From NCBI GenBank assembly GCA_048537945.1, contig CM108483.1, positions 9,786,715 through 9,850,714 of the forward strand: DNA of 64,000 bases, written 5' to 3'. Positions within the stretch are counted from its first letter, which is position 1; each line of letters begins with the position of its first letter. The notes beneath the pieces were generated by a model, which worked only from the letters and a program-made list of their open reading frames with translations, had not been told where the DNA came from and did not search any database. Of this stretch, positions 10,249 through 59,790 are shown piece by piece. A program made the position numbers and the translations under genes. The stretch comes from Mnemiopsis leidyi. Its lineage: Eukaryota.

Positions 10249-10419
10249 CTGATGTAACTCATTCCACTGTCCAGTGTTGTCTACAATGTTCAGATCGCAC
10301 TTCTCCTTCAACAGAATCTCAGCTGTAAGAGTGCTGTTCCCGTCACAGATCGCATTGTAGAGAGGTGTCATGCCCTTCAAATCTCTGGAGTTAACAGACG
10401 CTCCAACATCAAGGAGCAC
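10249..10419 (-). CDS. SHANK: SHANK-like gene, ankyrin-repeat exon (VLLDVGASVNSRDLKGMTPLYNAICDGNSTLTAEILLKEKCDLNIVDNTGQWNELHQ)
   Basis: 57 codons matching SHANK LLELGASPDYKDSYGLTPLYHTAIVGG...CCKDENGWHEIHQ. tttcag acceptor and GTTTGT donor; lies within track ORF 10159-10440 (-). Confidence 0.8.
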
Positions 10420-11402
10420 CTGAAACGTTATATAAGGCACTTCATGTGGAACTTTGAGTATTTATGTGTTAGTACTTAACTCTTGAAGTATACTTAGATT
10501 ATCACGCGTTTGATGGGTGTCGAGTCTGAATTCGATTTACATTTAAAATTATACCACGTGTTTACACGTTACTCAGTAGACCGCAGTTTTCAATTAAATT
10601 GGTGTGATATAAAATAAAAAGGGAATCTTAGGAACCATTTAGTTGCTGCGGGCGGATACATTTTGAAAATCTTAATTTGCTTGTCTTCCCGCCCAGCAAC
10701 TTTCATGTTGGAATCTATTAAACTTATACTGTGCGCGCGTAAAAACGCGCGTGAAAGTAAGCTCTGTGTAAGATTTTCAAAACAAGAAGATTTATGCGTC
10801 TTACAGTTATGCGTGAAGACCCAGTAGTAGTATCATTCGTATCATCATCACATTATTGCGGAAAGCAAATCAAATAAAATCTGTTGGCGTGTAAATACCA
10901 GCATGCAAGAACGAACAGATTTTTACGCTACACTTATTTGGAATGTATCGGCTCCGACATTTTCAAGGAATGTGCGTGAAAGCAAGAGCAAGCACACTTG
11001 CTTTCAGATTGTTTTAAAATTTTAAAGTAAAATCAAGAACTTAATTTCTAATGTTTTAATACTTTCAACACTACTATTATACAAATAATTTGAGGTTTGG
11101 CAACATGATCTGGCGGGCCAAACTATAGCAATAGCCGGAGAAGAACTCTCAATCTTGGGTACGTATTTGCGTCGATTGCCCAAAAGGGAGCTGCTTTTCG
11201 CTGTCATTGTTTTACACATTCAGCTTTGAAGAATTTACGCTGTTTGTGTGTTTGAAGAATTTGTTCAAGACTACTCAATTTCAGTTGGTACCAGCTTTCT
11301 GTGAATACCTGTTACCCACTGTAAGCTATTTTGTTTTCTGGATTCTGCCGCTAAGTTTTTCAGATACGACTGGATCCTATCTCGTGTCTGGGTACTGCGA
11401 CC

Positions 11403-12827
11403 ATGGAATTGGAAGAGGAGTTAGCAAAACAGAGGGTAGTCATTGGGGGGCTTCTCAATGTAGCAAGTGCAGATGCTAAGAGAGTACTCGCTGCATACAG
11501 TCCTGAGAAGGGTTACAGTTACAATCTAACAAAGCTTCTAAAATGTAACTCGAGGCAATTAGAAGCTTGTGCTAGTTTAGTCGGTCTGAAGGCTAGGTCT
11601 GCCGACGGAAGTGATAAACTGTATCAGAAGCTTGAGATCTTAGCAGATAGGATTATCCTGAAGATAGAGTCACTGTTCGAGGCAGAATGCAGTGACTGCA
11701 GAGCTGTGTACTGCAACACACTCGAGTCTGAGCCGCTATTCACGTGCAGGCTCTGTTTACTTGGCAGTCATAACTGTGAGGAGATCAAGAGAAAGGCGGA
11801 AAACGTTGGCCAGCTGTATCCATCTGGTTTTGTCTGGCTGTGTAACGTTTGTCTCGGGAAAAACGACTTGGTTAGCATGCTTTCTCCCACCAACACTCTG
11901 AAAAAACAACCTCTAAAGAAGAACTCCAAACCTACAGCTAGTGTGGAAAAACTTAACACTATCAAGGAAAAGGATTCGGAGGAAGAGAAAGCCGAAGAAG
12001 AAGAAGAGATAAAGGAGGAGGAAGACAAGGTGGACGAGAGACAGAGCCCTAATAGGGTTCGTGATGATAGAGAGAGCGAAAAGTCTGGCAGGGAGAGTCA
12101 GAAAGAGAAGAACCGTGAGATATGCGAGCTGTACAAGAGGAGAGCTTGCCCCCATGGGCTTAAGGGAAAAACTCTACATGACGGAAAGGTGTGTGATAAA
12201 AGTCACCCTAAGAAATGCTTCAAATTCTGTGATTTCGGTTCGAGACATAAAAATGGATGCAAGAGAGGCAAGAAATGTCAGTATTGGCACCCGAGACTTT
12301 GCAGGTTCTCGCTGAAAAATCAGATATGTGAAGTTGAAAGCTGCACCTTCCAACACCTAGTTTTTGACAAAAAAGAGAGGCGTGTGGGCAACAAGGAGCC
12401 GACAGGAGAAGAAAGGGGAGAAAGGGAGAGTGATGTGACAGGAAGGCCTGCAACAACCCGCAATCTGGATCGTGCACCCAAGTTCAGTATTGCTTCATCA
12501 GGCTACAACGGCAGCTACACCCCTTACCCCCCAACTATAGGGAAGCCTGCACCCTCCAAAAAGCAGACGGAAGAGGAGGACATTTCTTTTTTATTCAAGC
12601 TGATCGAGAATCTTCGGGTGGGATTCCAAGAGCAGCTAGAAGGGTTGAGAACAGAGATTGTGAAGGGGCGAGACACGGGGAATCAACTGGCCAATCAGCA
12701 GAGCCAGCAGGAATTCAGGGATCCAAACATGCAGGTGTGTCAGAGAGGGATGCAGATGAACCACCCATTCCCGTACCTGATGCCACACCCGTGGTACAAC
12801 CAGAATTATCCTCCTTTGTCCTCCTAA
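11403..12827 (+). CDS. LINE ORF1: gag-like nucleic-acid-binding protein with Cys-rich zinc-finger/knuckle clusters and an acidic/basic low-complexity linker
   Basis: 474 aa ORF with Cys clusters (CSDCRAVYCN...CRLCLLGSHNCEE...CNVCLGK; CPHGLKGK...CDKSHPKKCFKFCDFGSRHKNGCKRGKKCQYWHPRLC) lying immediately upstream of and overlapping ORF2, the usual LINE layout. Confidence 0.75.
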   Translation: MELEEELAKQRVVIGGLLNVASADAKRVLAAYSPEKGYSYNLTKLLKCNSRQLEACASLVGLKARSADGSDKLYQKLEILADRIILKIESLFEAECSDCRAVYCNTLESEPLFTCRLCLLGSHNCEEIKRKAENVGQLYPSGFVWLCNVCLGKNDLVSMLSPTNTLKKQPLKKNSKPTASVEKLNTIKEKDSEEEKAEEEEEIKEEEDKVDERQSPNRVRDDRESEKSGRESQKEKNREICELYKRRACPHGLKGKTLHDGKVCDKSHPKKCFKFCDFGSRHKNGCKRGKKCQYWHPRLCRFSLKNQICEVESCTFQHLVFDKKERRVGNKEPTGEERGERESDVTGRPATTRNLDRAPKFSIASSGYNGSYTPYPPTIGKPAPSKKQTEEEDISFLFKLIENLRVGFQEQLEGLRTEIVKGRDTGNQLANQQSQQEFRDPNMQVCQRGMQMNHPFPYLMPHPWYNQNYPPLSS

Positions 12828-13945
12828 ACGGACAAAGTGTGTCTCCTGCAGCAACAAGCACATCAAGGTGGAAACTCCCATACCTGGAAAAGACCATAAA
12901 GGAGTTTAGCTGTCCACCACCTTTTATGGCCATCACAGAGACGTGGCTGAAGGGCTATATTAGTGACGCGCAGGTGACAATTGAAGGATATCAGAGTTAC
13001 AGATCAGATAGAGAGGATAGAGTAGGAGGAGGCTGCTTGCTCTACATTCATGACAGCCTTGTAGTCACGGACACAGAGCACTACGAGGACAAGCACCATA
13101 ACATGATCATGTGTTATGTTAGGTCCTGCAATACAGTAATTGCAACTATATACAGACCACCTGGACCCGAGGCACTAGGCTGGAAAGCACTACTTGATAG
13201 GTTACAGATAAAAATTGATGGCTTATCTGAGGGTGGCACAACTCCCGACCTTTACATAGTAGGCGATTTTAACTACCCAGAAATGTACTTGGACCTTGGA
13301 TACTCAGAGCATAGCAGTAGGCCTGGACAAGGTAACGAGTTACAAGAGTTTGTCGATCGAAACTTCCTAACTCAGGTTGTTCAGAAGCCAACAAGAGAAG
13401 GGAATACTCTAGACCTGGTATTTACGAATGTGTCCAGGTACGTTATGGAAGTCGAAGTGAGTGACACCATTCTTTCAGACCACAGGCTAGTGGAGGTACG
13501 GTTGGGGTTCAATATGGTCGGCAATGCCATCGCAAAAGAAACTTCACTGGATCCGTACTCATTTAGAGCAGTTGACTATCACAAAGCCAACTTTGAGGTA
13601 ATGAATCTACAGTTATCCGAAGTGAACTGGGAGGAACTGTGGGAGCTGTGTGACAATAATCTGGGGGAGTTCTTGGAACTTATGCGGCTAACAGTCCTGC
13701 AAGTTACTCTCCTGCACTCGCCCCCAAAGGAGGACAAAGCTGCTGCTATCTCAAGGAGGAGAAGGGCTAACAGGCATATCAACGTCATGAAACGGAAAAG
13801 AAGAAAGCTTAATGCCAGGATAAGGGCGTTAGAATCAGCAAATCCAGGCTCAGGGAGACTGCGGGATCTTAAGTCTGAAGTGGCACTCCTTTGCTACGCC
13901 ATACAAGAGGGTACCCTGAATAAACTGGACAAGAGGGAGAAACGG
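12737..13945 (+). CDS. LINE ORF2 5' part: apurinic-endonuclease-like (EEP family) domain, truncated by a transposon insertion whose first 3 nt (tag) create the stop
   Basis: Typical LINE APE motifs (ITETWL, LLYIHD, YRPPG, IVGDFN, LDLVFTN, SDHRLVEV). The ORF runs into TAG at 13946-13948, which is the first triplet of the inserted element. Confidence 0.85.
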
Positions 13946-16900
13946 TAGGGTGCGCCCTTTTTTCTAAACCTATATGGGCTCTACCCTTATCTGATAGAGC
14001 TCAACGAGCTGAAAACGAGGATGCCTTCCTTTTTGAAATTGGACAACGGGAAAGACTACCCCTGGTCGTTTAAAAGTTACGACGATCTAGGATGTACATG
14101 TTGCGCACGCGCGAACTCGGACGCTTGCATATGCTGCACCTGTCATAACTCACGCGCATTTAGCGCGGCTTCATGGTAACTTCCGTATACACAATGATTA
14201 TCTAGTCACTGACGTAATGCAGTGCTGGCGACTTTGACAAAAGAAAGCAAAGAGGACATACTCCTGACTGAAATCGACCGAGAAATCGTTTAAAGCTATC
14301 GTCGAGGCTCTAAAATGTGACACTAACTCGATAAATGATAAATGATCGGGATTGTAGCTATATAAAAGGTCACAATTCCTGGAATTATTACAGGAGACAA
14401 ACCTTTGAAACGTAAAACAGATCAAGTGAAACACAATCCGGCGAGGATCAAGTAGCAAGCAAGTTACTAGTACTAAAATAAACAAAACCTATATTGCCAA
14501 GTTAGTACTAGTAGTCACAAAATATTTTAGTTACTCAATCGACAGTCGCTCGGTTGCATTATCATAGGAAAGCGAAAGAAACCGTTTACTTTAAACATGC
14601 ACAGCCACAAGCAGTAAGCACACGTTTAACTGAAGTATCGTTCAAGTCAACCCGAATACACAGAGGATATCTCTTATATACCACACTCAGTAGGGGAATG
14701 AAGCGATCTCATTGGCTCCTAGTACGGCTAGCTACGTCACTAGAAGTAGAGACCTAGAGTAAGGTAAAAGTTACGTCACATATCTGCCTGCCGGAGTGAG
14801 GAAAATCAAACGATCTGATTGGCACACAGCTGCAGTCACGTGACTAGATTGAGTGGGGCAAAAGAAACGAACCATCTCTGCTTGCAATTTCCTCACTCAA
14901 ATGATGATGAATCATGATGTGAGTTGTACCGATCTTGAGTGAGGGAAACCAAGCAATCTCATTGGCTAGAAGCAGCAGTCACGTGACCTGGTAGAGTGGG
15001 GAAAAAGAAACGAACCATGTCTGCTTGCAATTTCCTCACTTAAATGATGATGTGACCCGTATCGATCTTGAGTGAGGGAAACCAAGCGATCTCATTGGCT
15101 CATGGCTGCCGTCACGTGACTTGGTAGAGTGGGGCAAAAGATACGTTACACCTTTGCTTGCAACTTTCCCACTCAGATCATGGCGATGCGAACAGTACCG
15201 ATTAGGAGTGAAACGAGACTGAGGCCAGAGTAAGGCAAATCATACGTCACTACAAGAACTTGACGGTCCCCAGAGTGTAATCTTTCGCTCGTTGCCCGTC
15301 AAAAATATGGACTCTGATATGCGAATATCGGCAGCTAGATTAAGATTGTGACCAATCCTTCTCTAGTTAACTTCGCGGCCAGAAAACGTTCCGCTACTAT
15401 ACCAGGGAAAATACTCGAGCTGCGGGGTGCCGTGTCAGATTTTGTCCGCCTGATTAGGTCTGGCGCATTGTCAGGCCTGCTATAAGAAATTTTTCATCGA
15501 TGCATGATTTACAATATAATCATACTTAATTTTTTTAGTGCTAGTCAATCAAACTGAAACATTAATCTAACGTCGTATACGAGTGTTGATAAAACTATAT
15601 CCGTCCGAACGTTAAACGGTTGTGTAGTAATACTACTACTAGTACAAGTACAACTAAGGGTTGCTTCAGTGTTAGGACATAGGTTCAAGGATCGACCGGG
15701 ATCGCTTTTTCAGCCGGGACCGGGACCGGGATCGGTAAAAATGGCCGGGACCGGGATTTTGCCGGGACCGGGATTGTAACCGGGACCGGGACTGTAACCG
15801 GGACCGGGATTGCGACCGGGATCCCGGTCGGTCCCTGCAAAGGTTATAGTTCGATTTAAAATAGAGGGGGTGGATTTAAATGACAAGTCGATTAAGCTGG
15901 TACAAAGGAGACGTCCATGTTAATGTAACTGATTGGCTTTACGATAGACTACAGCAATTAAGGTGCACTATTAGTATTTTTCATATTGGGCGGATTACAT
16001 TTTTCGGAAAGCAGGGGCTGACTCACGCCTCAATATCTGATCGCCATACTTGACACTACACCCGATCCGTGCTGTTTACATTATCTTGTTAAATCTTAAT
16101 TTGTCACCGTGTCGCAGTAGACTGTGAGGAAGCCTTCTTCAGTTGACATCTTCAGCAGGCTTTTTTCGACCCTCATTATCAGAAGCGAATTATTCTCCAA
16201 GAATTTAAAATGTCGGGATGGTGCACGTGCTGTACAACCGCAAGCTCCAATTCCAGGGCATTTTAACTGATCGGTAATATAACGGGTATTTTAACTTTAA
16301 GCTGTTGTCTCACGCTCTGCAAAGTGATTGCATTGTTTTAGGAGAACAATCTTAGAATTAGATAGGGATGTATTATTATTTGCAAGGTCAAGCTACATAG
16401 TGATATATTGTAGATAAACTTAAATATTTGATCATTTCTGTTGAGTCTGTCCGCTCTTGGTCCTAGTAAAAAGTTGCGTTACTGTCGGCTGATAAGGAAG
16501 CGAAGCTAAAAATCTAAACAAAATCTGGATACTGTCAAACCAATTGTGAATTGGTGTTAGTTTTACGTTGTAGGTTGAGAACCTTCTGCCGCGGCCATCA
16601 CGGGCTCTCGCGCATTTCTGGCCTAGCGACACAAATTTTAATTTTTAAGAAATTCTAGACGCTCATCGCCCGTTAAGTTTTACTTTAAAGCTAAACGCTA
16701 CTGGCCAGATCAAAGCGATGTATCATTATATAATGGTCACTCGCAAGACTAGCTTTATAAGTCGATTAGATCGCTTATTTCCCCGGAGCGGCAGCCCCAC
16801 TAAAAAGTTATTTTGAATCTGTAAATGTGCACCGGTAACAGTAACACAGTAAAGGATCCCCAATCAGCAATGGAGGTGACGTGTCTTCAGCTTTAGCGGT

Positions 16901-18151
16901 TACCGTTCGAGTACAACTACATAGTAGTGACGTGTGATTCGCCTAACTCTAGCCTCAATCACGTGACCAGCTGCAAGCCAAAGAGATCGCTTGGTTTCCT
17001 TCACTCCTAATCGGTGCAGGTCGCATCGTTGTGATCTGAGTGGGGGAGTTGCCTGGTGCAAGCAAAGTTGAAAGTTGTGACGTATCCTTTGCCCCACTCT
17101 ACCAAGTCACGTGACGGCAGCTATGAGCCAATGAGATCGCTTGACTTCCCTCACTCAAGATCGGTACAGCTCATATCATCATTTGAGTGAGGAAATTGCA
17201 AGCAGACATGGTTCGGTTCTTTTTCCAGACTCTACCAGGTCACGTGACTGCAGCTGCGAGCCAATGAGAAGCTTGGTTTCCCTCACTCCAACAGGTAGAT
17301 ATGAGACGTAACTTTTACCTTACTGTAGGTCTCTAGTGACGCAGCCGGCCTGAGGAGCCAATCAGATCGCTTGATTCCCCTACTGAGTGTGGTATATAAG
17401 AGCTTTACTTGTTGTTTTCGGGTTGATTTGATCGATACTTCCAGTTACACGTGTGCTTACTGCTTGCGGCTGTGCATATTTAACAATCGGTTTCTTTCGC
17501 TTCGCTATAATAATGCTACCGAGCTACTGTAGATTGAGTGACTGAAATATTTAGCGACTACTAAGTTTGCAACATAGGTAAGCCTCACGTTGTGGCCCCG
17601 TTAGTCCTACTGTCATCCCGGTTCTAGTATGAGTACAAGATGCTTGCTTGCCACTTAGTCCACGCTTATCGCCGGATCATTCGATCTGTATTACGCTTGA
17701 AAGGTTTGTCTCTTGTAATAATTCCATCAATTGTGACCTTTGATATAACAACAATCCCGATCATTTATCGAGTTAGTGTCACATTTTAGAGCCTCGACGA
17801 TAGCTTTAAACGATTTCTCGGTCGATTTTAGTCAGGAGTATGTCCTCTTTGCTCTCTTTTGTCAAAGTCGCCAGCACTGCATTACGTCAGAGAATAGATA
17901 ATCATTGTGTATACGGAAGTTACCATGAACCCGCGCTGAATGCGCGTGAGTTATGACAGGTGCAGCATGCAAGCGTCCGAGTTCGCGCGTGCGCAACATG
18001 TACATCCTAGATCGTCGTAACTTTTAAACGACCAGGGGTAGTCTTTCCCGTTGTCCAATTTCAAAAAGGAAGGCATCCTCGTTTTCAGCTCGTTGAGCTC
18101 TATCAGATAAGGGTAGAGCCCATATAGGTTTAGAAAAAAGGGCGCACCCTA
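13946..18151. mobile_element. Non-autonomous foldback-type DNA transposon. It has perfect terminal inverted repeats (tagggtgcgccctttttt...), ~1.3 kb inverted arms (13946-~15245 and ~16880-18151) with ~127 bp tandem subrepeats, a ~1.6 kb unique core without ORFs, and a 9 bp TSD gagaaacgg (13937-13945 / 18152-18160)
   Basis: The reverse complement of 13946-14440 matches 17700-18151 nearly base for base. The subrepeats (gagtgagggaaaccaagc...tcacgtgac...) occur 3x in each arm in mirrored orientation. Identical 9-mers flank the element. Removing the element plus one TSD restores the ORF2 frame. Confidence 0.85.
15700..15840. repeat. (gaccggga)-type microsatellite with palindromic character, inside the core of the foldback element
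   Basis: Iterated cgggaccgggat motifs ending in the palindrome gaccgggatcccggtc. Confidence 0.8.
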
Positions 18152-18160
18152 GAGAAACGG

Positions 18161-20050
18161 GCAGTAGAGACTATAAAGGACAACCCAAAATACTTCTTTT
18201 CATATGCTAAACGTCTACAAAAGACAAAGTCCACCATACCTGTCCTTAGAGATGAAAATGGCAGGCTGGTAGAGGACCCTGCGATTAAAGCTGAACTGTT
18301 GCAAACCCAATATCAAAAGGTTTTCAGCAACCCAAAGGATGCAAACCTTGAAGAGTGTATGGGAAATCCGGGTTTACCACAGGGATCAAATCAAGGTTTT
18401 GGTGAACTCAGTTTTACAATAGAAGACATCTTAGAAGCCCTGGAGGAATTAGATCCGTACTCGGCAGCACCTGACGGCGATATTCCTGCAAAGATTCTGA
18501 AGGTCTGTAGATACCAGCTAGCGGGCCCACTCAAATTGCTATGGTACGAGTCATTCAGCAGGGGGTGCATACCGGAGGAGCTTAAGACACAGTATATCAC
18601 TCCTATTTACAAAAAGGGTGATAGGACGGACCCTGCAAACTACAGGCCAGTGTCACTGACCTCTCATGTTATGAAGACCTTTGAGAGGGTGATGAGGAAG
18701 TACCTCGTCAAGTATCTTGAGGATTCAGAGTTCCTGCATAACAACCAACATGGGTTCAGAAAGAAAAGGAGCTGTATGACCCAACTCCTCAGCCATATCG
18801 ATCAGATTTACCAGTCGCTCAACAACAACGACGAAGTCGATGTGATCTATCTAGACTTTGCTAAGGCTTTCGATAAAGTCGATCACTCGATCCTACTTGC
18901 TAAATTAGCTCGTTATGGCATTAAAGGTAAAGCACTCAAGTGGCTTAATGAGTTTCTGTGTGGAAGGAAGCAGACAGTAGTTGTTGAAGGCACGAGGTCA
19001 TCTCTACAACCGGTTGTGAGTGGTGTACCTCAAGGGACAGTACTGGGTCCTATTCTTTTTGTGCTCTACATAAACGATCTGTTGAGTACAATTAAACACA
19101 GCTGCGGGTTTAGCTTCGCCGATGATACTAAACTCATCGGAGGTATTCAAGGGCTATCCAGTGTGAACCACCTACAAGATGACCTGAACTTAGTGATAGA
19201 GTGGTCAAGGAGTAATAATATGGAGCTGCACGAGCAGAAGTTTGAAGTGGTCAGCTACAACCTCAACACGTCGAAGACTCTAAGAGAGCTCCCGTTATAC
19301 CCTGAAAATGTTGAGTATAGCACCCCAAAAGGACATGTTATAACACCACAGGAAATTGTCTGTGACCTGGGTGTCAATGTTAGCAGCAGCAGGGGGTGGG
19401 GACCACACATCGAGAAGACAGTTCAGGGAGCTAGGAAGATGGCGGCATGGGTATTGAGCGCGTTCAGAGATCGGTCACCCACTGTGATGCTCACATTATA
19501 TAAGAGTATGGTCCGGTCCAAACTTGAATACTGCTGCCCAGTCTGGAATCCTGTGAAGATTACAGAGATTCAGAGGCTAGAGAACGTACAGAGATCGTTC
19601 ACAAGGAAGATACTTGGCTGCAGTGAGCTTCAATACTGGGACAGGCTAAAGAAGCTCAAGTTAATGTCACTTCAAAGAAGAAGAGAGCGTTACTGCATCA
19701 TACACGTTTGGAAGATCTTAAACGAAGAGGCTCCGAATGACATTGGCTTCACATTCAACTGTCACCAGCGACTGGGGTTGAAGGCGGTTATACCACCGGT
19801 GAACAAGAACTCCCAACTGTCGGTGAGATCTGACTACGACAGTACATTCAGGGTTAGAGCAGCTCAGCTCTTCAACATCCTGCCACCAGAGCTCCGTGCT
19901 ACTACCTCACTGGATGGCTTTAAGGCAGGACTTGGAAGATTCATGGACCAGTGCCCAGACACCCCACCGATCCCGGGTTACACTCCATCGAACGACAACT
20001 CGCTACTGAGCTGGAGGAGGACGCACACGATGCAGTTGTCCTGTGCATGA
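18161..20050 (+). CDS. LINE ORF2 3' part: reverse transcriptase domain plus a C-terminal domain, in frame with 12737-13945 once the nested insertion is removed
   Basis: RT motifs 1-7 (PDGDIPAKILK, YRPVSLTSHVMKTFERV, QHGFRKKRSCMTQL, IYLDFAKAFDKVDH, SGVPQGTVLGPILF, FADDTKLIG). The join ...gagaaacgg|gcagtagag reads EKRAVET, and the excised length 4215 equals 3x1405. Confidence 0.9.
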   Translation, partial: AVETIKDNPKYFFSYAKRLQKTKSTIPVLRDENGRLVEDPAIKAELLQTQYQKVFSNPKDANLEECMGNPGLPQGSNQGFGELSFTIEDILEALEELDPYSAAPDGDIPAKILKVCRYQLAGPLKLLWYESFSRGCIPEELKTQYITPIYKKGDRTDPANYRPVSLTSHVMKTFERVMRKYLVKYLEDSEFLHNNQHGFRKKRSCMTQLLSHIDQIYQSLNNNDEVDVIYLDFAKAFDKVDHSILLAKLARYGIKGKALKWLNEFLCGRKQTVVVEGTRSSLQPVVSGVPQGTVLGPILFVLYINDLLSTIKHSCGFSFADDTKLIGGIQGLSSVNHLQDDLNLVIEWSRSNNMELHEQKFEVVSYNLNTSKTLRELPLYPENVEYSTPKGHVITPQEIVCDLGVNVSSSRGWGPHIEKTVQGARKMAAWVLSAFRDRSPTVMLTLYKSMVRSKLEYCCPVWNPVKITEIQRLENVQRSFTRKILGCSELQYWDRLKKLKLMSLQRRRERYCIIHVWKILNEEAPNDIGFTFNCHQRLGLKAVIPPVNKNSQLSVRSDYDSTFRVRAAQLFNILPPELRATTSLDGFKAGLGRFMDQCPDTPPIPGYTPSNDNSLLSWRRTHTMQLSCA

Positions 20051-21222
20051 ACTGCCGAACCATCCAAAACGTACCAAACGTACGTACGTATGTTGAGCTA
20101 ATGATGAGATGTTGAATTTTTAATCCCATTTGTAATTAAATCCAGTCTAATAACAACTGACTCCGAAGCCTTCATTACGCGTACACTGCCTAAAAGCCAT
20201 CACAGCACAGCTTGTACCCTCCTAATAAACTTTTAATTTAAACATTCGCTCCCTTGCCCCAGGTAAAATGAACGTCAACCATTTAGCCATTTAAGGGTGG
20301 GCCAATTAACGAATGCAACAAACTGTGTTGGAGAGTTCTGCATTAACTGTCCAATTTAACAGCCGAAATTTATTTCGATTTTCTAAAAGAAGGTTAAACC
20401 CGATTTGAGATTTCCACAAATCACATAACACTAGGCTCTGACACTACTTTCAAGTGTTTTTTTGTAAGTTTCAATTAGTTTCACAATATTCGCGTGTTTA
20501 TTATGACAAGCATTGCTCATAACTAAGCATTAAGCAACAGGTAGTTTTGGGTGTAAGATAAACAAATCTAAAACTCGGCGCTTTATCACAAAGAAGTCTC
20601 TAGCAATTGTAATGGCAAACACTAAAGAGGGCGTGTGGCTACTTTAACATCTACACAAAGCATTAAAAACAATGAAAAGTGTAGACAGTATGGCTAACAA
20701 TATAATAATGAATATTGGAGGTTTGTCCCCACCCCTAGTTAGACACATTGGAGACAAGTTAAATTGTCAAGAGTGAAGTGTAAAGGGACAGTGAGGGTAA
20801 ATAGCGGTACAGTCATCATATGATTAGATAGTCACATACTTGAACTGCAATCTTCATTCTTCTACACACATTCCGACATAAAATTGCGATCGTTTATTCA
20901 TGATGCGATGTAGAATGAAGGTAGCTGTGGTATGTGTGTGTGTGTGTGTCGTTCAGATTGGGACATTCTTGCTGCAATTTATCTTGTGACACTTGCGTTA
21001 TTTGACTAATGAAAGGGCTATACCAACTACGATAATCGCTGAATAATTAGATAATGTCACGAGAAGAGCCCAAAAAACCTGATTGAAATAGGGTATCTAG
21101 TTTCTAGTATGAAGGTATCTAAATTGTTAGTTAGTACATCAGATTGATATAGGTATCTAAGTAGGTAGGTATCTCCTTATACACAACTATGTCCGCACTC
21201 TATAACACGAGCACAGACATAC

Positions 21223-21374
21223 CTGCATGGACTCATGTTTTCCATTAATTGAGGCGTGGTGAAGAGCAGTGTATCCGTTCCTGTCCCGAAACTCCAAGAA
21301 AGCCCCGTATCGACACAGCAACATTATCATTCTCTTAGGTTCCTTCCCCAACACGGCTTTCGTCAACGGAGTGT
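21223..21374 (-). CDS. SHANK: SHANK-like gene, ankyrin-repeat exon (..TPLTKAVLGKEPKRMIMLLCRYGAFLEFRDRNGYTALHHASINGKHESMQ)
   Basis: Aligns with SHANK ETPLTLAAQLDDSVEVIKALKNGGAHLDFRAKDGMTALHKAARARNQVALKT. tattcag acceptor and GTATGT donor; the phase is compatible with the neighbouring exons. Confidence 0.8.
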
Positions 21375-25000: not shown

Positions 25001-25439
25001 GGTCCTATTATTGGCTCTTATATTGTACGTAAACAATTACATTCTCCGATTTCACAGTTTTAGTTATGACTTATGATATAGTATTATCATTCTCCTGAGG
25101 CAGAAAACTTCCCTTTGGTTTCAAATTAAAGGGAAGATTTTAATCATGACCTATACTTAATGACGTGACCTACTGAATAGAAAATCGAATGATACTAGAC
25201 CACCAAAAAAGAACTTAAAAGCTAGATCTGAAAGCTGTGATTTATAGAATCTAAAATAAGCAACTTACAAAAAAAGGACCAAACATGGGCTTATTCAATT
25301 ACTACGATGCTCAAGTTATTACAAGGACACACACGAAGAAACTTGAATAGGAAATATGGGGCCAATGCGAGAAAGGACTTAGACTCGAATTTGTACGCTT
25401 TGCCAATAACATTCTCACCTATACATTTTTAAAAATTAT

Positions 25440-25915
25440 CAATAAACTTCCCAGGCCGGTAACCAGTACCCAGGCCGGTAACCAGTACCCAGGCCGGTAA
25501 ACAGTACCCATGCCGGTAAACAGTACCCATGCCGGTAAACAGTACCCATGCCGGTAAACAGTACCCATGCCGGTAAACAGTACCCAGGCCGGTAAACAGT
25601 ACCCATGCCGGTAAACAGTACCCATGCCGGTAAACAGTACCCATGCCGGTAAACAGTACCCAGGCCGGTAAACAGTACCCATGCCGGTAAACAGTACCCA
25701 GGCCGGTAAACAGTACCCATGCCGGTAAACAGTACCCATGCCGGTAAACAGTACCCAGGCCGGTAAACAGTACCCAGGCCGGTAAACAGTACCCATGCCG
25801 GTAAACAGTACCCAGGCCGGTAAACAGTACCCAGGCCGGTAACCAGTACCCAGACCGGTAAACAGTACCCAGAGCGGTAACCAGTACCCATGCCGGTAAA
25901 CAGTACCAATAATCT
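25440..25915. repeat. Minisatellite of ~24 copies of a 20 bp unit ccggtaaacagtacccaggc (with cat/cag variants)
   Basis: Direct tandem iteration. The three overlapping minus-strand ORFs in the track here are repeat-translation artefacts. Confidence 0.95.
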
Positions 25916-28900
25916 ACAAACAGTCACAACCTTTACACCCCTTCAGGGTAGTGTAGTTTCCAGCACAAAAAGTTAAGTAGCTGAGTGCTGAACCGGTAAC
26001 AGCTGACATTGGAAACCCGTTGAGAGTTTCTTAGCTAACTTCAGACAGCGGCCGGCAAGTTCGTATTTTAACAATTATTGACATTTAACGTAAAAGTCTT
26101 GGCAACAAATTTTGACACATTTTCACTTTCATATGATTTCTTGCTCATTTCTCAGTGACTGGAAAATTGAAAAAGTTGTAAAAACATGGGCTAGATTGTC
26201 TATTATAGCACAATTTTACTGATCATCTCTGAATTTAACACAAGAGGTAGGCTATTCATTATTCATGACTTTCTTGCCTTTTTAAGGGTTCGTTAATGAG
26301 AGAAATTTACGGAATGATTGTGGCAGAATTTTAGCAGGACGATTATTTCAAGTTTCAACAATCTCCAAGAAGTGTAAGAAAGTCAACGACGCGTACGTAT
26401 CTTCCAGAATTAGAGCTAGAAGTACCACTACATATCAGGGTATAACGCGACACTGCAATATCATTAAAACTCGATAGCTCATTTCCCGCCGGAGTGACGT
26501 TGGGAAAGTCAACTGTCAAGACATTTTGCAGTGTTGAATCCCTCAAATTGTTGTATCGTGATACGACTGTATATTGTGCATGTAAATGTCACCAAAAATG
26601 GAAAGAATGTACACACAGCTGACTGAGTGTGGCAAAAATCTGCAAGATCAAAAAGTCCGTCAGGTTATCAAGATGGCGAGTTCTATGAAAAATGAACCAT
26701 TGTGATCACAATCGGACGTCGGTTAAAAATATCCGCATTATCCGCTTTCCAAATCGCACAAAGGGTGATTCTATCAAGTCTATTCCCAAGATTTAGTTCA
26801 GTTGACGCCATCTGTCTGAGGCTGCACCAAATTCCCAAGGTTATAAAATGTCTGACCAGTTTATTTCCCAGTGCTCCAAGCCAAGCAGAGTACGGGTTTG
26901 CTGGAATAATTACCCCAGAACACTTTCTACTATTCTAAACTCGTGCGAACTGCTAGCAGTTTTTACGGTTTATCGTCGGTTTTGAATTTCCGTTTTTCAA
27001 CTAATTGCTTTCTTTTTTCTTCAATGTAAATTTCACACCGGTTATTTCTGAGGATTTGGAATGGAAATTTAGCAATTTTGACAACAAGAATTCCTGTTAC
27101 TCGGAAATTCAGGAGCCTCTAAGAATTTGAGTTTCTTGTACGGAAATTCAGCAACCAGTAACGAACATATTCACCTCACTAATAATGATAATTATTTGTA
27201 TCTTCCAACTTATTACCATATCCGTAATCCGTATCTTGGTTTATCAGGTTAATAGAAACTATATAAGGAAAATGTGGGAACCTCTGATTGCTCTGGAGTG
27301 CGTAAAACAAAATTTGAGGAATTCCAGCCAAGTGACATTATTCTATTTTTGGCAAATGCAAAGATTGATTGTCAGTTTTTGGTAAATTGATCACAGGATG
27401 ATTCACATGACATGTGATCTCGAAATATTCCTAGCAGGAACCTTGCCATATCAAATACTTAAATTTTTCAAACATCCTGTAAATCTTCCTTATTTCGAGT
27501 TTTTGAAAGCACTGTGAAATCTCAATTTATTTTTAAAGTAGAGGCGTAGAGTTTGATCAGATATCTTCAGAAATTAGCCATAAACTCAGCTTGATGATTA
27601 AAAGCAATGTGTGGTTGATGCTTACGATTTTAGTGTTAAAATTTTTCTCGTGCTAAGGGCGGTTTAGAGATGGTGCAAGATAGCGATATCAATACACTAC
27701 ATCATTTCGTTCTGGGGAACGTCAGGCAGGGGATAATAGCTGAGCTATACTATAATTGCCTCCAACACCACGGCTTATAGCTAATGCTAGAATTAACACT
27801 ATAGCCTTTCAACTGCACCCAGCACCCTCATGTTCTTTATAAAAAGAGAATTTGAATAGATGTAAACGTCCACCCATGTCGGTGTGATACGCGGTCAAAG
27901 AAATCCTGCAAATTGATGAGATTAACTAATGCCAAGATACAAGATCCTAACTGCTAAGTCGCAGATAATATCTTCATGGGTTGCTCTCTTAAACCGTTCT
28001 AATGCCGTGTAAATGCTTTTAGAACGAAACTATCACGGGGGTATAATTTAACGTCTCATAAAAGCAGAGAGCTTTTAATATCGCAGTAGGGTTCGGTACT
28101 TGTATGGAGGGCGATCATGTACGAGGACCAGCCCCCCTAATAAAGTTGATTTGATTACACATTCTTGCAGGTTATACAAAGCAGCAAAGGTAAGGATTAC
28201 CAGATCTGATACGTTAACGACAGATAGATGTCTATGTTACTTACAAGTACATTTCTAACAGGAACACAAATTCAGTGAGATTTCATAGGGGGACGACGAC
28301 GGCTAGTTACTGTTGGGAGAATTCCGATCTTTATTTGATTTCAAGCGACAGAGTAATGTTGTCAGCTTGAAGTGGAAATGTTTCAAGGACAAACGAGATT
28401 CCGGCTCATTTCTTGATAGAGACTTCTCAACTTATAGTTGAGCTGATCAGACTAAAAGACTCTGGGGATAAGGAAAATACCATTAAGTATCACGCCTGTG
28501 TAAATTTTGTAATAAATAGGCTGGAAAACAATCAGGAAAGCTGTGGAGTCTTTTTTGTCAACGCGGGTTGTGAGATAAAGTTTGGACAAACAGCGGAATC
28601 AAATTCAATGACCAAGAGACCAAAGACCATCAAAAAAGTTAAATATTCTAAAATATGCGATTGCAATTGATCGAGAAACAATAACAATAAATAAGGTGAC
28701 CAGCTCGCGAAAACCGATTAAATCCAAGAGCTATACATTCGATATCAAAAGCCGACTAGCATGTTCCAACTCCCAAACAATAAAATTTTAGGCAGCTCAA
28801 CAAAACAAATACATCTGTCTGCAGAGTGCAGTACTCTGCATGAGTTGTGAAATAAACAGAGACCAAGCTCAACTCAATCTAAACAAGCTGAGAAGACCCC

Positions 28901-39851: not shown

Positions 39852-41159
39852 TTAGGTTGTTCGAAAAAGATTGTCAGTAGTCGAATAAAGGAGCTGATAT
39901 AGTAAAATGGCGGAAAATTTTAATGTATTTGGGAAACATGATCTCCATTAATTTCAGTTACACGTTCTCAGTGGTCACACAGCTTCTTAAGTTGGTCCAT
40001 CAGGATGTTTTCTGACATCAGTCTTATGCTCTGCTGAAGGCGGCCTTGACATCTTCTGGGCCGTTAAAACATAATTTCTAAGGTCCTGCTTGATTTCTCT
40101 TAACATATATCCGTCAAGAAGGTCTGAAACTGGAGAATAGGGTGCCTGGTGAACAACTGAGATTCCGTTCTGTTTATGATAATCTTGCAAAATAGTGGCT
40201 GAGAGAGATTTGCATGGTCCATTGAGGTGTGATTTTTTTCACAGAATGTTTGTGTGTTTTGAGGCACATAAACCTTTTAGATGTGTCATTTAGGTACTTA
40301 ATCATAGTGGTGGCATCAATAGTTGTACCTTGGTGCATCACAGATACTGAAAATCTTTTAGGCTTGCAAGTGAACCTGATTAAACCCATTGTTTTCTTTT
40401 TTGTTAACTTTGACTCACATCTGTCGGTTTCGGGTCTTTTTTGCCAATCCAAACTCTTCCATTGTACTTTTGAGACCACAAAAACCAAGGTTTGTCTTCA
40501 ATGACATAGTTCGACCCCACAAACTGCAGACCCTTGGTGTTAAACAGCTCAAGTAACGCTCTGCAACATGCCACCCAAGCTGTTTTGTTGCCCACTGACA
40601 AAAAATGAGGTACCCAGAAGGCATGCACGTTTCTGAGGATAAGATTCTTAGTTAGAATATCAAAAGCGCATGTCTTTGGTATAGAAAGTCGTTAGGCAAT
40701 ATCAGTGCATGATAATCATGAGTTTTGAGTTTTTATTCGCTTTATTTTCCTGACTGCTTCAGTGGTACAGGTCACAATTGGTCTACCAGGGCTTGTCCTC
40801 TTTTCCTGGTTAAATCGACCATTCAAGATATCTGAAATCCAACAGAAAACATTCCTTTCATTAGGGCTAGCATCCCCGTGAACCGCTACAAGCTCACTAT
40901 GAATGTCTGCAGCAGATAGACCCATCTTGTGTCGAGTCAAAACATTGAAACGAAAATCACGATTCATCTCATTCAGCGGAGGTAGAAAATGAAATCAAAA
41001 AGCTTAGTTTAAAGGGCTGTTTAAGTTCAACCCTTATCCTAAAAATCACTTATCTTTACCTAAAATTGTCTGATAAAACCGATCCTGGTAACGAAGTTTT
41101 ACTCAGACTTTTACTTTTAGAATAAAACGCTCACTGACAATCTTTTTCGAACGCACTAA
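39852..41159 (-). mobile_element. Degenerate mariner-like (Tc1/mariner) element, 1308 bp, with ~32 bp imperfect TIRs and flanking TA dinucleotides
   Basis: Left end ttaggttgttcgaaaaagattgtcagtag. The reverse complement of the right end is ttagtgcgttcgaaaaagattgtcagtgag. Minus-strand ORF fragments carry the mariner transposase HTH (SPGRPIVTCTTEAV), DEKWF-like (IEDKPWFLW) and C-terminal HQAPYSP..D motifs. Confidence 0.85.
39987..40967 (-). pseudogene. Mariner transposase open frame broken into at least 4 frameshifted ORF fragments
   Basis: Track ORFs 40716-40967, 40404-40628, 40174-40488 and 39987-40190 (all minus) each match successive parts of mariner transposase but lie in different frames. 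Confidence 0.8.
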
Positions 41160-41866: not shown

Positions 41867-43183
41867 TTGTTTACTTCAGCTATCAAAATGCCGATTCCAA
41901 ATCAACAGACTGCCTCTGAAGTTATGAAAGAGCGCGAAAGGCTTTACAAGCTTATTATCGGTCAACTCCGTAAAGACAAATTTGAGACTGTTGCATATGA
42001 GTTAACAGTTGCGCTCAAGAATGCCACTGGTGGATTTATGATTCAGAGTGCTCCTACAAATAGGCTTAGTCAGCTAGTCCAGTATGGAATAAAATATGAA
42101 GAACTTAATGAAGAGACTGAGACGCATAGCAAAAAGCTTGAGAAAGCCACAAACCTTGGCCCTGGTTTAGATCTAGAGTATGACACAGATGACATGAACT
42201 CCTCTCCTACTGTTATTCAATATGAAACTGCTTATGTTACCTCACACAAAGCCCCCTGTCGTGTTGCCTGCTTTACAGCTGATGGAAAACTCTGTGCTAC
42301 AGGGAGTGTGGATGCAAGTCTAAAAATAATGGATGTTGAACGGATGATTGCCAAATCACAGCAGCTTCAGAGGCAAGAGAACGAAAATCATCCTGTCATA
42401 AGAACTCTTTATGACCATCTTGACTCGATAACTGCACTCACTTTCCATCCTGTTACAACACACTTGGTAAGTGGATCCAAGGACTGCACCATCAAGGTGT
42501 TTGACTTTACCAAAGCTAGCGTGAAAAAAGCAGTCAAGTGTCTGGAGGAGGGGGCATCAGTCAGAAGTTTGGCTTTCCACTCTACAGGGGACTATCTGCT
42601 GATGGCTCTTGATCATCCAGTCATAAGATTGTATGATTATGTCACTCTGAAGTGCTATGTTTGTTCAAATAGTCTGTCACAGCACTCGGGTCCTGTTTTG
42701 GCATTATGTTGGAACTCTGACTGTACAATGTATGCAAGTTGCAGTAGTGACGGTTCCATTAAATTGTGGGATGGTGTTAGCAACAGATGTGTGAAAACCT
42801 TTGATGATGCTCACAACGGTGCTGAAGTGACCAGTGTTCAATTCTCAAGGAATGGGAAATATGTGCTATCCAGTGGAAAGGACAGTGTTGTTAAGCTTTG
42901 GGAGGTTACCAGTGGTAACATCTTGAACGAGTATGTAGGTGTCACTCAGCACAACCACCGAACTGGAGCACAGTTTAACCACACCGAGGACCTGATCATA
43001 GCTCCTGATGAGAAAGGAATGGCTGTTGGGTGCTGGGATGCTCGCACTGCTGAGCCTCACCCCCATTTAGTGTCTGGACACAACAATGTTATTCGGGGAG
43101 CAATTCACTCTCCTACCATGCCAGCATTCATATCTTGCAGTGACGATTTCAGGGCCAGATTTTGGTATTACAGAGGAATTTGA
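41867..43183 (+). CDS. CSTF1: Cleavage stimulation factor subunit 1 (CstF-50) ortholog with N-terminal dimerisation region and WD40 repeats, encoded as a single uninterrupted ORF
   Basis: 438 aa ORF collinear with human CSTF1 over its whole length (LYKLIIGQL, YETAYVTSHKAPCRVA, ENHPVIRTLYDH, SNRCVKTFDDAHNGAEV, FNHTED, CSDDFRARFWY). A possible acceptor (tttacttcag) sits just upstream in the 5' UTR. Confidence 0.9.
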   Translation: MFTSAIKMPIPNQQTASEVMKERERLYKLIIGQLRKDKFETVAYELTVALKNATGGFMIQSAPTNRLSQLVQYGIKYEELNEETETHSKKLEKATNLGPGLDLEYDTDDMNSSPTVIQYETAYVTSHKAPCRVACFTADGKLCATGSVDASLKIMDVERMIAKSQQLQRQENENHPVIRTLYDHLDSITALTFHPVTTHLVSGSKDCTIKVFDFTKASVKKAVKCLEEGASVRSLAFHSTGDYLLMALDHPVIRLYDYVTLKCYVCSNSLSQHSGPVLALCWNSDCTMYASCSSDGSIKLWDGVSNRCVKTFDDAHNGAEVTSVQFSRNGKYVLSSGKDSVVKLWEVTSGNILNEYVGVTQHNHRTGAQFNHTEDLIIAPDEKGMAVGCWDARTAEPHPHLVSGHNNVIRGAIHSPTMPAFISCSDDFRARFWYYRGI

Positions 43184-50136: not shown

Positions 50137-52397
50137 TCCCTTACAAAACTGCAGTCTGCATCTAAGTAAGATCATGCAACATCATTAGAACATGTTATAT
50201 CATTCCTTATTGTGGTACACAGAGACTCCTTTACTCTTAAGATGGACTAAAGTATTCATTTATTAGATATTAATTGTTTTGTTCACTCAGCTGTTAAACT
50301 AGACGTTGCAGTTTCAGCTGGTCTAAGTCAAAGTCACCAACCCCAGCACGGTTCCGTGTACCGCATTCCGTAGAATCCAGCTCTAACGTTCTGGCACAGT
50401 CAGGTATTCTAGACTGTGACTCATCTTCTAAATCCAATCTGAAAACAAGATAAGAACCACCTAGTTCCTATCATGCCTGTAATTCGATATTTTCAAGCTT
50501 TCTCCATTTAAACTGTCTGCCTTACCTGCTTTCTTTCACACTGTCTTGCGTCAGCAGCGTCTTCTTGCTTACTTTTTGTAGTTAGCTCTACATGGGGTCG
50601 AGGAAAAGGGAATGATTTTTACTGAATGAGGATTACGGATTATAGTTGAAAACTCTGAAGAGCATATTATAAGAATAGGTTACAAAAGTAAGTCTCCCGG
50701 CTTAGTTTATGACCTTTATTTTCATTTTCAGTATGTGACGTCTCTTTCTCTCTTCAAAGTAGTTCCTAGTCACAAGTGAGGATGTGATAACTTTTGAACA
50801 ATTCAATTACTTTCTTGCTAACTTCGCTCGTATGTGACTGATTTGGATGGTACAGCTTATTCAAGAATGCAGTTTGTTAGACGATGAAGTCTTCGTTAAC
50901 TTTCTTGGTGGTTGAGTTGAGCAGATCGATTGTCTTTAGAGTTTATTATACAATAATTATAGTCATTACCTATCGTTTGACAAGATGCCAAATTCCTTTA
51001 ACTTTATTCTGCTGGCCAGAGCGATATAAAATATGAGTTTAGGCCCGAGCTGTTACGATGACCACGCTCCTCCTCCCACCACACGCCCGGAAATAGATCA
51101 GCTGTAAACACATCGTGGTGGGACCTCCTAAAAATCAATCTGTAATTTGAGCCGTTACAGCCTTTCAATTTTCGTGCCACTTCTGCTTTTCTTAACATTG
51201 TTGCAGTTGAGCCTTTCTGATTTTGATGAAATCAGTCGGCCACAGTCCAAACCACATACACATAGTGTGGCCCTCTCAAATAGTAAAAAGAAGCTCATGA
51301 GAGTCCATGGAAATTGAATACACTTTAGTAAATTGCTTTTTAAATCAGAAACGTTGGTTTTGATTAATTGCTAAGAATTCTAATGACTTTTCTGTTCTGA
51401 AATATATTTAAGTGGTCGATCGGTTTTAAATAGCAGAAATTTCAGTTCTTTATAAACGTGTGACCGAACCTAAAGTCGGTATGCATTATCTTCTCTTCTG
51501 TCACGATGTGACTGTCTGCCGAGACCGGACTTAATCTTTCCTCGCGGGTCATGCTAATTTTCGTAACATGCTTGTACTTGTGAACTGTTTTAAGATTAGT
51601 TGCAGGATTATACAATCTTGCATAGTGGTAGATCTTTCCGCTTTTTACTTATTTTCCTCGCTCACGTACTGATGTTTTGTCTCGACTTTTTGTAAAAGAA
51701 ATAATAATTAGGCTGCTGTGCCCGTCATCAAACTGGAAATTACCTATTTTTGTCATGATTAGAGAATTTTTCGAGAACTATCCGCTCCTTCACTTTCTGT
51801 TACGTGGTTCAACAACACAGTGGCACACTCATACGATAGTTCATTAGGTAGGCTAGATAATTCGCATCTTCCCAGCATGGCATTAGCCGCAATCTTTAAA
51901 TCTACTGTTGTATCATTAGTATTGTTTAAGTCATCCCTGTCTGTGGACACGTGACACAGTGCTTCACCTCCATATACGGTGCCCTGGTCTACACTTTCTG
52001 GGATTGTTATTCCGAGCTAGACTTGGAATCTCTGTAATTGTCCAGACATCTGGCTCCAGCTATATTAAGTGATCTTTTTTTAGGTTGCAGAGTGTTATAT
52101 GATATTGTTAGTCGTTGTTTCATGCTGTCCTTCATTTCATTTCCACCTTTTATTCAATTTTTCCGTAGTTCCTGCCTGTTCATAAATAGTTATATTCCGC
52201 TGCAATCTGGCAATGGCTTTCAAAGTTGTAATGCTGGCCAGCTATTTCATTGGGTAACGACTTTCTGAAATAGTTCTTGTCATTTTCGATTGCCATGTAT
52301 AGTGATACGTCACACGCGTGTATATTGTATAAGTAGCTGAGTACACTGGGTTTAAAAAGTGCAATCAAGTGGTAATGTAACTGCCGAACTAATTCAG

Positions 52398-52578
<181 letters not shown>

Positions 52579-53499
52579 CCTTTCTGTTGTATCGTGTTTG
52601 ACATGCTGTGTGTAGTGTGTACCTAGTTCGGTGGTGTATTGAGTCTAGATCTCACTTTAGCTTACTGCTATCCTTATGTTGTAATTACCTAATACCTCCG
52701 GTATGTAACTTGTGTTTCGTCTGCAATTGTATACTACCGTGCAGTTGAATTAGTTGTAGAAGTTGTCCTGACAATGTATTGCTTTTTTTAAATGCCACAT
52801 AAATCATCTAATTACCTGTTCCACAACTTATTGATTGTGCTTTGCCCCACCCAGAATGTGAAACAAAGTGTGTTAATATTGGTTGGTTGCTGTTTAAAGT
52901 TCTATCTTAATCATGATTCCTTTGCGGGAGCTAATGTGCGTATTGATGAAGAATGAATTAAGAGCGTTCCGCCGAGTTTGTTCATGTCTTTCTAGATTGC
53001 AGTTCAAAAGCATTCCTTGCGAGTTAGGATTGGTATCTAGATGGGGTGTAACTTTTCTTAAATTCGATATTTTAGCTTTGTGGGTTTCTGCAGAAAGTTA
53101 GGAGAAGGTCAATGTAGCAAGGTCAATGTAGCTACGAAATGTAGTTCGAAAGTAAACGTCCTTAGAAAGCTTGAATGGAATGTGTACAAATTATTAAAAT
53201 TGTTGTCTAACAACCAGGCATAACAACTTTTGTTTTCGTGATCTACACAATTTTATTTGAAGGGCCTTAACGTTGGGCAAATAAGCTGATACATTTAGCA
53301 CATTTGGTGATTCCCTAATTTTTTCCTGCTCCTTCGTATTTTCTTATCCAGATCACAATAATCTGCACCTCAATACTGTACCAGCTGGTTGCATTTCTAC
53401 TCATTGTTATATGGTTTTCCATCTCAATTCTTTACTCCCCATTGACCAGGAAAGCAGTTTCAGCCATGAACTAGAAGAGAGATAGAGAGAGATTAAGCA

Positions 53500-59329: not shown

Positions 59330-59488
59330 GTAACCGATACTGTAAATGTTGTTGGAAGCAAGAACCAAGTGTTTTTACACACTGTTGCTTGTACAATGTA
59401 CAGCACTGCCATATAAGGCCAACTTGCAACCGGTGTGTCTGTGATGATGTTAATTGGGGGGTTGTGAGCAAGCAAACGCAAAGCTACA
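59330..59488 (-). mobile_element. Inverted partial copy of the SINE body. It forms the left stem of a ~150 bp-stem palindrome with 59625-59783
   Basis: Reverse complement of 59625-59783. Track ORFs 59289-59471(-) and 59648-59833(+) encode identical peptides, which confirms the inverted duplication. Confidence 0.75.
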
Positions 59489-59790
59489 GGACCTGGTCGG
59501 TAAAATTAAGGAGAGCAGGGCCTGGGTAGCTTAGTGGTTATAGGTACTGGAGGTCGTGGGTTCAATTCCCGCTCCAGTCCCCTCGCCTTATTTTCCAACC
59601 GGTCCACTGATTGATTCACATGCCAGATCCTGTAGCTTTGCGTTTGCTTGCTCACAACCCCCCAATTAACATTATCACAGACACACCGGTTGCAAGTTGG
59701 CCTTATATGGCAGTGCTGTACATTGTACAAGCAACAGTGTGTAAAAACACTTGGTTCTTGCTTCCAACAACATTTACATTACACACACAC
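59489..59790 (+). mobile_element. tRNA-derived SINE copy 1. It has a tRNA-like head (gggcctgggTAGCTTAGTGGttatag...GGTTCAATTCCcgctccagtccc, with A-box and B-box) and a ~200 bp unique body
   Basis: The pol III A box (TRGCTTAGTGG) and B box (GGTTCAATTCC) sit at canonical spacing. The segment is duplicated at 59848-60044. It lies in an ABCC intron. Confidence 0.7.

Follow-up and report, generated by a model that had tools for sequence, protein, structure and literature searches.

What lies between the two halves of a retrotransposon gene in the ctenophore Mnemiopsis leidyi, and in what order did the pieces arrive? The question is raised by a stretch of 64,000 nucleotides of the M. leidyi genome (GenBank assembly GCA_048537945.1, contig CM108483.1, positions 9,786,715 to 9,850,714 of the forward strand; hereafter the window, to which all positions refer unless stated otherwise), in which the second open reading frame (ORF2) of a long interspersed nuclear element (LINE) is broken by about 4.2 kb of other DNA. 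In this study, we report that the 4.2 kb segment is a secondary insertion in the LINE ORF2 and a non-autonomous foldback-type transposon of 4206 bp, and that two successive transposition events, LINE first and foldback element second, very probably took place within an intron of an ankyrin-repeat (SHANK-like) gene on the minus strand.

The interrupted gene was recognised from two long ORFs that share a frame of the plus strand, one at 12737-13948 (403 codons, ending in TAG) and the other at 18299-20050 (583 codons), with 4.2 kb free of long ORFs between the two halves of ORF2. Excision of 13946-18160 (4215 nt, a multiple of 3) joined ...LDKREKR to AVETIKDNP... and gave an uninterrupted frame of 1032 codons closed by a stop codon. 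Pfam analysis of the joined ORF2 detected Exo_endo_phos_2 at residues 135-252 (2.6e-06) and RVT_1 at residues 554-768 (1.7e-31), which is the N-terminal AP-like endonuclease followed by a reverse transcriptase (RT) that characterises a LINE of the apurinic/apyrimidinic endonuclease (APE) type. Since the break follows residue 403, it falls in the linker between the endonuclease and RT domains, as a preliminary description of this DNA had proposed. The parts of the LINE are as follows.

11056-13945, plus strand: left part of the LINE, comprising the 5' untranslated region (UTR), ORF1 (11403-12827) and the endonuclease half of ORF2 from 12737; 99.7-99.8% identical to the uninterrupted copies L001-L003 described below.
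18161-20089, plus strand: right part of the LINE, comprising the RT half of ORF2 (stop codon 20048-20050; Pfam RVT_1) and a short 3' UTR; 99.0-99.5% identical to L001-L003.

ORF1 (11403-12827, plus strand) encodes 474 aa, in which a Cys-rich block at the N-terminus is accompanied by several Cys/His clusters of CCCH-like type, and it matched no Pfam family. The short 3' UTR closes in an (ACGT)n-like tail with no poly(A), as judged by comparison with the tails of L002 and L003. No other copy of the LINE was found within the window.

Two statements made earlier about the joined frame need qualification. A continuous ORF2 of about 1033 aa does exist, but that length counts from a GTG inside the overlap with ORF1, and the uninterrupted copies give 969 aa from an ATG. 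The reading frame is preserved in the sense that 4215 is a multiple of 3, as one length in three would be by chance, but this is without functional consequence because 90 stop codons interrupt that frame within the insert; excision of the insert necessarily restores the frame of ORF2. The first of the stops is the TAG at 13946-13948, which is the first triplet of the inserted element and, as had been noticed, ends the endonuclease ORF (12737-13948).

Analysis of the boundaries placed the insert at 13946-18151 (4206 bp), with 185 nt at each end that are 100% reverse-complementary. The identical 9-mers which had been said to flank a 4206 bp element are both present, and a scripted search found no third copy on either strand of the window. 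Re-inspection of the direct repeat, which the preliminary description had itself named as a check, showed a match of exactly 9 bases and no longer. The element begins with T and ends with A while the adjoining target bases are G and G, so the boundaries cannot slide, and the target-site duplication (TSD) is therefore unambiguously 9 bp. By chance, a 9/9 match would fall precisely at both ends of a perfect inverted repeat with a probability of about 4^-9. The two copies of the TSD are identical in sequence.

13937-13945, no strand assigned: left TSD copy GAGAAACGG (LINE sequence), present as a single copy in the empty sites on L001-L003.
18152-18160, no strand assigned: right TSD copy GAGAAACGG, single in the same empty sites.

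The empty sites came from a protein search with the joined ORF2, which retrieved P0001, an uninterrupted protein of 969 aa that is 99% identical to the query and is encoded on contigs L001, L002 and L003 (two Logan runs and one ENA assembly). Each of the three contigs aligned with the window LINE at 99.0-99.8% nucleotide identity in two pieces, the 4.2 kb segment being absent. On L001, contig position 2866 is the last of the left piece (window 11080-13945), and the right piece (window 18152-20050) already begins at 2858; on all three contigs the two halves overlap by exactly the 9-mer, and ...gacaagaggGAGAAACGGgcagtagag... is found once per contig. Relatives of the LINE at 73-83% identity also read through the insertion site without a break, as in protein P0008 of Bolinopsis microptera (73% identity), which is continuous there as ...LNKKELRAVDAIKKNPKYFF.... 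The segment is a secondary insertion because these near-identical LINE copies lack it and hold a single 9-mer at the site. This agrees with the earlier proposal, which had asked whether other LINE copies carry the 4.2 kb segment; none of L001-L003 does. If the segment were instead a native part of the LINE, such as an intron or an internal module, only its position inside the ORF would speak for it, against three near-identical copies with a single GAGAAACGG, the uninterrupted relatives, and a segment with perfect terminal inverted repeats (TIRs) and a TSD of its own and 90 in-frame stops. The empty sites rule such a module out, and its probability is negligible.

The anatomy of the insert is set out below.

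13946-18151, no strand assigned: foldback-type non-autonomous TIR transposon with termini TAGGGTGCGCCC...GGGCGCACCCTA, recognised by its inverted repeats and without coding capacity.
13946-14130, plus strand: outer perfect part of the left arm, 185 nt, 100% complementary to 17967-18151.
14767-15175, plus strand: tandem subrepeats of the left arm, 3 units of 133-143 nt (repeat families D1, D3 and D6; Tandem Repeats Finder, TRF, period 133, 2.1 copies).
15254-16923, no strand assigned: non-coding middle (loop) of about 1.67 kb, with no inverted partner, no ORF >73 aa and no domains.
15714-15821: (CCGGGA)n / 18-mer microsatellite in the middle (TRF).
16924-18151, minus strand: right arm, an inverted copy of the left; its perfect outer 185 nt lie at 17967-18151 and its subrepeats at about 16924-17335.

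An alignment of the arms extends over about 1.2 kb (1265 columns), with 81% identity and indels; when weaker pairs are added, the left arm reaches about 15253 and the right arm about 16924, so that each is about 1.3 kb long, and together (13946 to about 15253 and about 16924 to 18151) they make up about 60% of the 4206 bp. Identity between the arms drops inward: the outer 185 nt match at 100%, the 209 nt that follow at 97%, and the sequence beyond these at 85-93%. The outer 185 nt of the left arm probably holds the end recognised by a transposase. About three subrepeat units are present per arm, and every unit carries GTCACGTGAC and the CCAAT-like GCCAATGAGATCGCTTGG. The former is a palindrome with the E-box core CACGTG, adjoining the CCAAT-like block, and such arm palindromes may be binding sites for a transposase or for host transcription factors.

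In a six-frame scan, the insert gave no Pfam match even at E<=1, and its longest stop-to-stop ORF is 96 codons. No tRNA was found in it, and Rfam returned only sub-threshold mir-67-like local hairpins. The insert is therefore non-coding, and the foldback character which had been proposed for it is upheld by the arm structure, the subrepeats and the perfect outer TIRs: very long inverted repeats, tandem arm subrepeats with a non-coding middle, and a TSD with a matching empty site are the features of the foldback class. The middle of 1.7 kb is unrelated to the arms, which would also fit a composite of two opposed elements of about 1.25 kb around unrelated DNA, moved whole or formed in two steps. 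In the window, however, the terminal 18-mer was found only at the two outer ends of the element, with up to 3 mismatches allowed; the arms lack inner termini and for this reason are not independent elements. A single 9 bp duplication, moreover, encloses the whole 4206 bp unit, and a composite is thus highly unlikely.

Further members of the family were sought with the ends and the ORFs of the insert. No other copy of the insert is present within the window. A scan of the JGI metagenome collection with the 22 nt terminus found one contig, L004 (OFJA01000440.1), with the match lying 4 nt from the contig end. Only the terminal approximately 105 nt of the element align with L004, at 73% identity, and strict conservation is seen in its first 22 nt and, at positions 84-101, in the block CTTTTTGAAATTGGACAA. 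Conserved blocks in so diverged an end are the pattern that would be expected for transposase-recognition sequences common to related families. The rest of L004 is unrelated to the element, non-coding and repeat-rich. Repeated GTGCACGTGCAA palindromes were observed at 28-85 and 439-486 of L004. In viral contigs, the 22 nt terminus had no match, and the 7 matches to the second conserved block were all bare stretches of 18-20 nt, which were rejected as chance. A joined query of the insert ORFs of >=50 aa, with low-complexity ORFs removed, had no match in a collection of 5.8 billion proteins.

The recurrence of the terminus in an independent metagenome contig also bears on the integrity of the sequence itself. 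Long inverted repeats are a known class of artefact, and the segment could in principle be a palindromic chimera of long-read assembly. Its arms, however, are not copies of the flanks and are only 81% alike, with indels and different subrepeat spacing, and an exact 9 bp target duplication bounds the insert. Together with the terminus in L004, these findings make an assembly artefact extremely unlikely.

The LINE in turn lies in an intron of a host gene. The exons on either side of it, and the duplicated target at its ends, are located as follows.

21223-21374, minus strand: upstream ankyrin-repeat exon of the host gene, with acceptor cag| and donor |gtatg, an Ank Pfam match, and collinearity with SHANK3.
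10249-10421, minus strand: downstream ankyrin-repeat exon of the host gene, with an Ank Pfam match; the same exon is P0122 in the orthologous contig L012.
11051-11055, plus strand: LINE 5' TSD, ATGTT; a single ATGTT lies between the same flanks in L012.
20090-20094, plus strand: LINE 3' TSD, ATGTT, from the comparison with L012.

Both ankyrin exons have canonical splice sites and enclose an intron of 10.8 kb (10422-21222), confirming the earlier placement of the insertion within an intron. The LINE and the foldback element account for 9.0 kb of it, and the LINE is antisense to the host gene. Two more ankyrin-repeat exons of the gene lie downstream on the minus strand, at about 9.8-10.0 kb and 9.4-9.5 kb. 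In a comparison with the Protein Data Bank (PDB), the four joined ankyrin exons matched residues 153-339 of SHANK3 (5g4x) in one collinear stretch of 188 residues (139 bits, E 1.7e-39), consistent with the collinear N-terminal ankyrin-repeat region (ARR) of SHANK proteins. For the top-ranked ankyrin, 4rlv, the best single stretch printed has about 55 bits, under half of the SHANK3 stretch; ankyrin and DARPin chains outrank SHANK3 only when their scores are added up across repeats, and apart from this one stretch their per-stretch scores were not printed. The link to SHANK rests on this PDB comparison, because a protein search with the host gene gave two short fragments only. Of the earlier designation as a SHANK-like gene, the part that stands is an ankyrin region most like the SHANK3 ARR; the window showed no SH3, PDZ or SAM exon (two candidate downstream exons were Pfam-negative and the other minus-strand ORFs were inspected by eye), and the gene extends beyond the window.

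Through one of the two fragments, P0122, we reached L012, which covers 20 kb of a contig of 2 Mb (ENA ERZ25071805, ctg2925). L012:1-20363 is collinear with window 1-29393 on the minus strand at 68-84% nucleotide identity, and for this reason is an ortholog from a related ctenophore genome. L012 lacks the whole of the LINE and foldback element, and its corresponding intron is about 1.9 kb compared to 10.8 kb in the window. Where the window reads ...aatttctaATGTT, LINE, ATGTTgagctaatga..., L012 reads ...aatttctaATGTTaaactaatga... with a single ATGTT. The LINE, including its insert, thus spans 11056-20089, has a 5 bp TSD, and is absent from the orthologous site, which shows that it entered after the split of the two lineages. 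The 24 nt at 11056-11079 are absent from the ortholog, and the alignment of L001 starts at 11080; they may be either the true 5' end of the LINE or extra bases at the 5' junction. As the LINE site is empty in the ortholog L012 and the insert site is empty in the LINE paralogs L001-L003, the order of events was LINE first and foldback second, and the foldback insertion is younger than the LINE insertion.

The LINE copy is itself young. It differs from L001-L003 by 0.36-0.62%, and of the 14 substitutions private to it, 7 are synonymous, 7 nonsynonymous and none disabling. Its ORF1 and both halves of its ORF2 are open. The earlier statement that the LINE was intact when hit and that neither half has decayed is therefore well founded, given the joined open ORF2 and the lack of disabling private changes. 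The left half has also entered the protein databases: the NCBI M. leidyi protein P0103 (ACHWQZ_G009948, 792 aa, annotated as 'hypothetical protein') equals the window ORF1 spliced to the endonuclease half. It ends in ...LDKREKR, at the TAG of the foldback element, and shares a substitution private to the window copy (LLCYAIQEG, as against LLCYTIQEG in P0001), which identifies the window as M. leidyi DNA. ACHWQZ_G009948 (window 11403-13948, plus strand) is a transposon-derived gene model and not a host gene, and its annotation can be corrected to a LINE-derived model ended by the insert.

The following course of events is very probable, the two insertions, their duplications and their order being shown by the data above. 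In a first step, a full-length APE-type LINE of about 4.8 kb, with ORF1 and an endonuclease-RT ORF2, inserted by target-primed reverse transcription and duplicated ATGTT. In a second step, the 4206 bp foldback element was cut and pasted into the linker between the endonuclease and RT domains; a transposase acting in trans would have made cuts at a 9 bp stagger, with gap repair yielding the GAGAAACGG duplication. The trans-acting enzyme would presumably be a transposase of the DDE (Asp-Asp-Glu) type, from a superfamily that we infer below, and the arm subrepeats may have served as extra transposase-binding sites. The window copy can no longer make an RT, because the TAG of the element truncates ORF2 after the endonuclease.

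To which superfamily would such a transposase belong? Because a 9 bp duplication is combined with a foldback architecture, we cautiously favour Mutator (Mutator-like elements, MULEs), whose TSDs are 8-10 bp and typically 9 bp; the TSD here is exactly 9 bp. In two papers, foldback-like elements with TSDs of 8-10 bp, mostly 9 bp, are placed in Mutator (PMC3169594, PMC4079207). Tm1 of Meloidogyne carries a Phantom-type MULE transposase (PMC3169594), Tetris of D. virilis was put in Mutator by TSD size alone (PMC4079207), and where foldback-like elements with a TSD of 8-10 bp could be assigned to a class, they had MULE/Phantom transposases (PMC3169594).

A genuine foldback element of another superfamily, mainly hAT with an atypical 9 bp TSD but also Merlin or P, is a possible though less probable origin. 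The six-frame Pfam scan and the protein search detected no transposase, which leaves room for it. The ends of hAT elements carry a YARNG motif in short TIRs of 10-25 bp and are flanked by an 8 bp TSD. The terminus TAGGG...CCCTA fits that motif, but the TIRs of the element are 185-1300 nt rather than short, and its TSD is unambiguously 9 bp and not 8. The same 9 bp fall outside the 7-8 bp of the P superfamily, including Galileo-type elements. Merlin elements make TSDs of 8-9 bp and have ends that begin 5'-GG (PMC8101967); the TSD length fits, but the element begins with TA.

A broader claim can be framed, namely that the insert represents an undescribed ctenophore family of foldback type, probably mobilised by Mutator/Phantom and very recently active in M. 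leidyi; as a whole, we consider it unlikely. No description of foldback-like elements for Mnemiopsis or ctenophores was found in the searchable literature, and a study of chromatin loops in Mnemiopsis, examined for transposable-element motifs, offers no sequence for comparison. Several points weigh against the assignment to Mutator and the course of events given above. The sequences searched yielded one complete copy and one related end only, and held no transposase-encoding relative with the same termini, the superfamily being inferred; the 9 bp length of the TSD rests on one insertion; and the terminus TAGGG...CCCTA fits the hAT end motif, although hAT normally has an 8 bp TSD. From the divergence of the LINE, age can be bounded only from above: 7 of the 14 private changes are synonymous, and some of them are for that reason probably subfamily differences that predate the insertion. 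Finally, foldback architecture is polyphyletic and has arisen in several superfamilies, with Galileo of the P superfamily as an example (PMC3169594, PMC4079207).

If the broader claim is true, an insert in a transcribed intron would place a near-perfect hairpin of about 1.2 kb in the host pre-mRNA, which could supply small-RNA or RNA-editing pathways, and the long inverted repeat could favour local rearrangement, as Drosophila foldback elements do. In itself, the locus holds an ordinary insertion of one transposable element into another that killed one young LINE copy and changes nothing in the known mechanisms of these elements; nested insertions of this kind are commonplace. Its value lies in an ordered record of two recent transpositions in a ctenophore genome, with an empty site for each. 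It points to recent activity in M. leidyi of a LINE family and of a cut-and-paste DNA transposon family, and supplies the termini and structure of a foldback-like family in a ctenophore.

Other features were observed elsewhere in the window. A second, small hairpin element is present at 59338-59781 and 59989-60037, with arms of 159 nt that are 98% complementary and 126 nt apart, and a third, partial copy of the arm follows after about 500 nt; a miniature inverted-repeat transposable element (MITE) or a local inverted duplication is a possible origin. An intronless ORF of 438 codons at 41867-43183 (plus strand) encodes a CSTF1 dimerisation domain followed by WD40 repeats and is CstF-50-like; its single exon, in a region where introns are otherwise common, raises the possibility of a retrogene. 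Adjacent broken ORFs at 39990-40994 (minus strand), with a weak match to HTH_48 (Mos1-type), look like the decayed remnant of a mariner-like transposase. A minisatellite of repeated ...GYCLPAWVLFTGMGTVYR... units at 25419-25942 has no stop in any of the three frames of the minus strand, and a long (GA)n-type microsatellite at 52183-52651 translates as RERERE....

Comparison with known systems was made for both elements. Membership of the LINE in the CR1/L2 clade is plausible from its sequence features: like that group, it has two ORFs, an APE-type Exo_endo_phos_2 endonuclease followed by RVT_1, a short TSD, and a short 3' UTR with a microsatellite-like end instead of poly(A), whereas its ORF1 differs in having no Pfam match. 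The sequences closest to the LINE are unnamed ones from the ctenophores Mnemiopsis and Bolinopsis, and the likeness to CR1/L2 is one of sequence features.

For the insert, the likeness to hAT elements (Ac, hobo, Tol2) lies in the TAGGG terminus, and the difference in a 9 bp TSD and arms of 1.3 kb as opposed to 8 bp and TIRs of 10-25 bp. Galileo and other foldback-like P elements share with it the long, internally repetitive TIRs, but Galileo has a P-type (THAP) transposase and a TSD that is reportedly 7 bp, compared to 9 bp here. The tandem repeats in Galileo-type TIRs have been proposed to hold secondary transposase-binding sites (cited in PMC4079207). The foldback-like elements assigned to Mutator, namely Drosophila FB, Tetris and Tm1, differ from the insert in having no sequence similarity to it, the insert being from a ctenophore host, and the subrepeat unit of the insert measures 133-143 nt, where Tm1 has 14 nt and Tetris about 220 nt. 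With these elements the insert shares long arms that form most of the element and are composite, tandem repeats lying between an outer flanking domain and an inner domain; a non-coding middle; a TSD of 8-10 bp, most often 9; and a family make-up in which most copies are non-autonomous.

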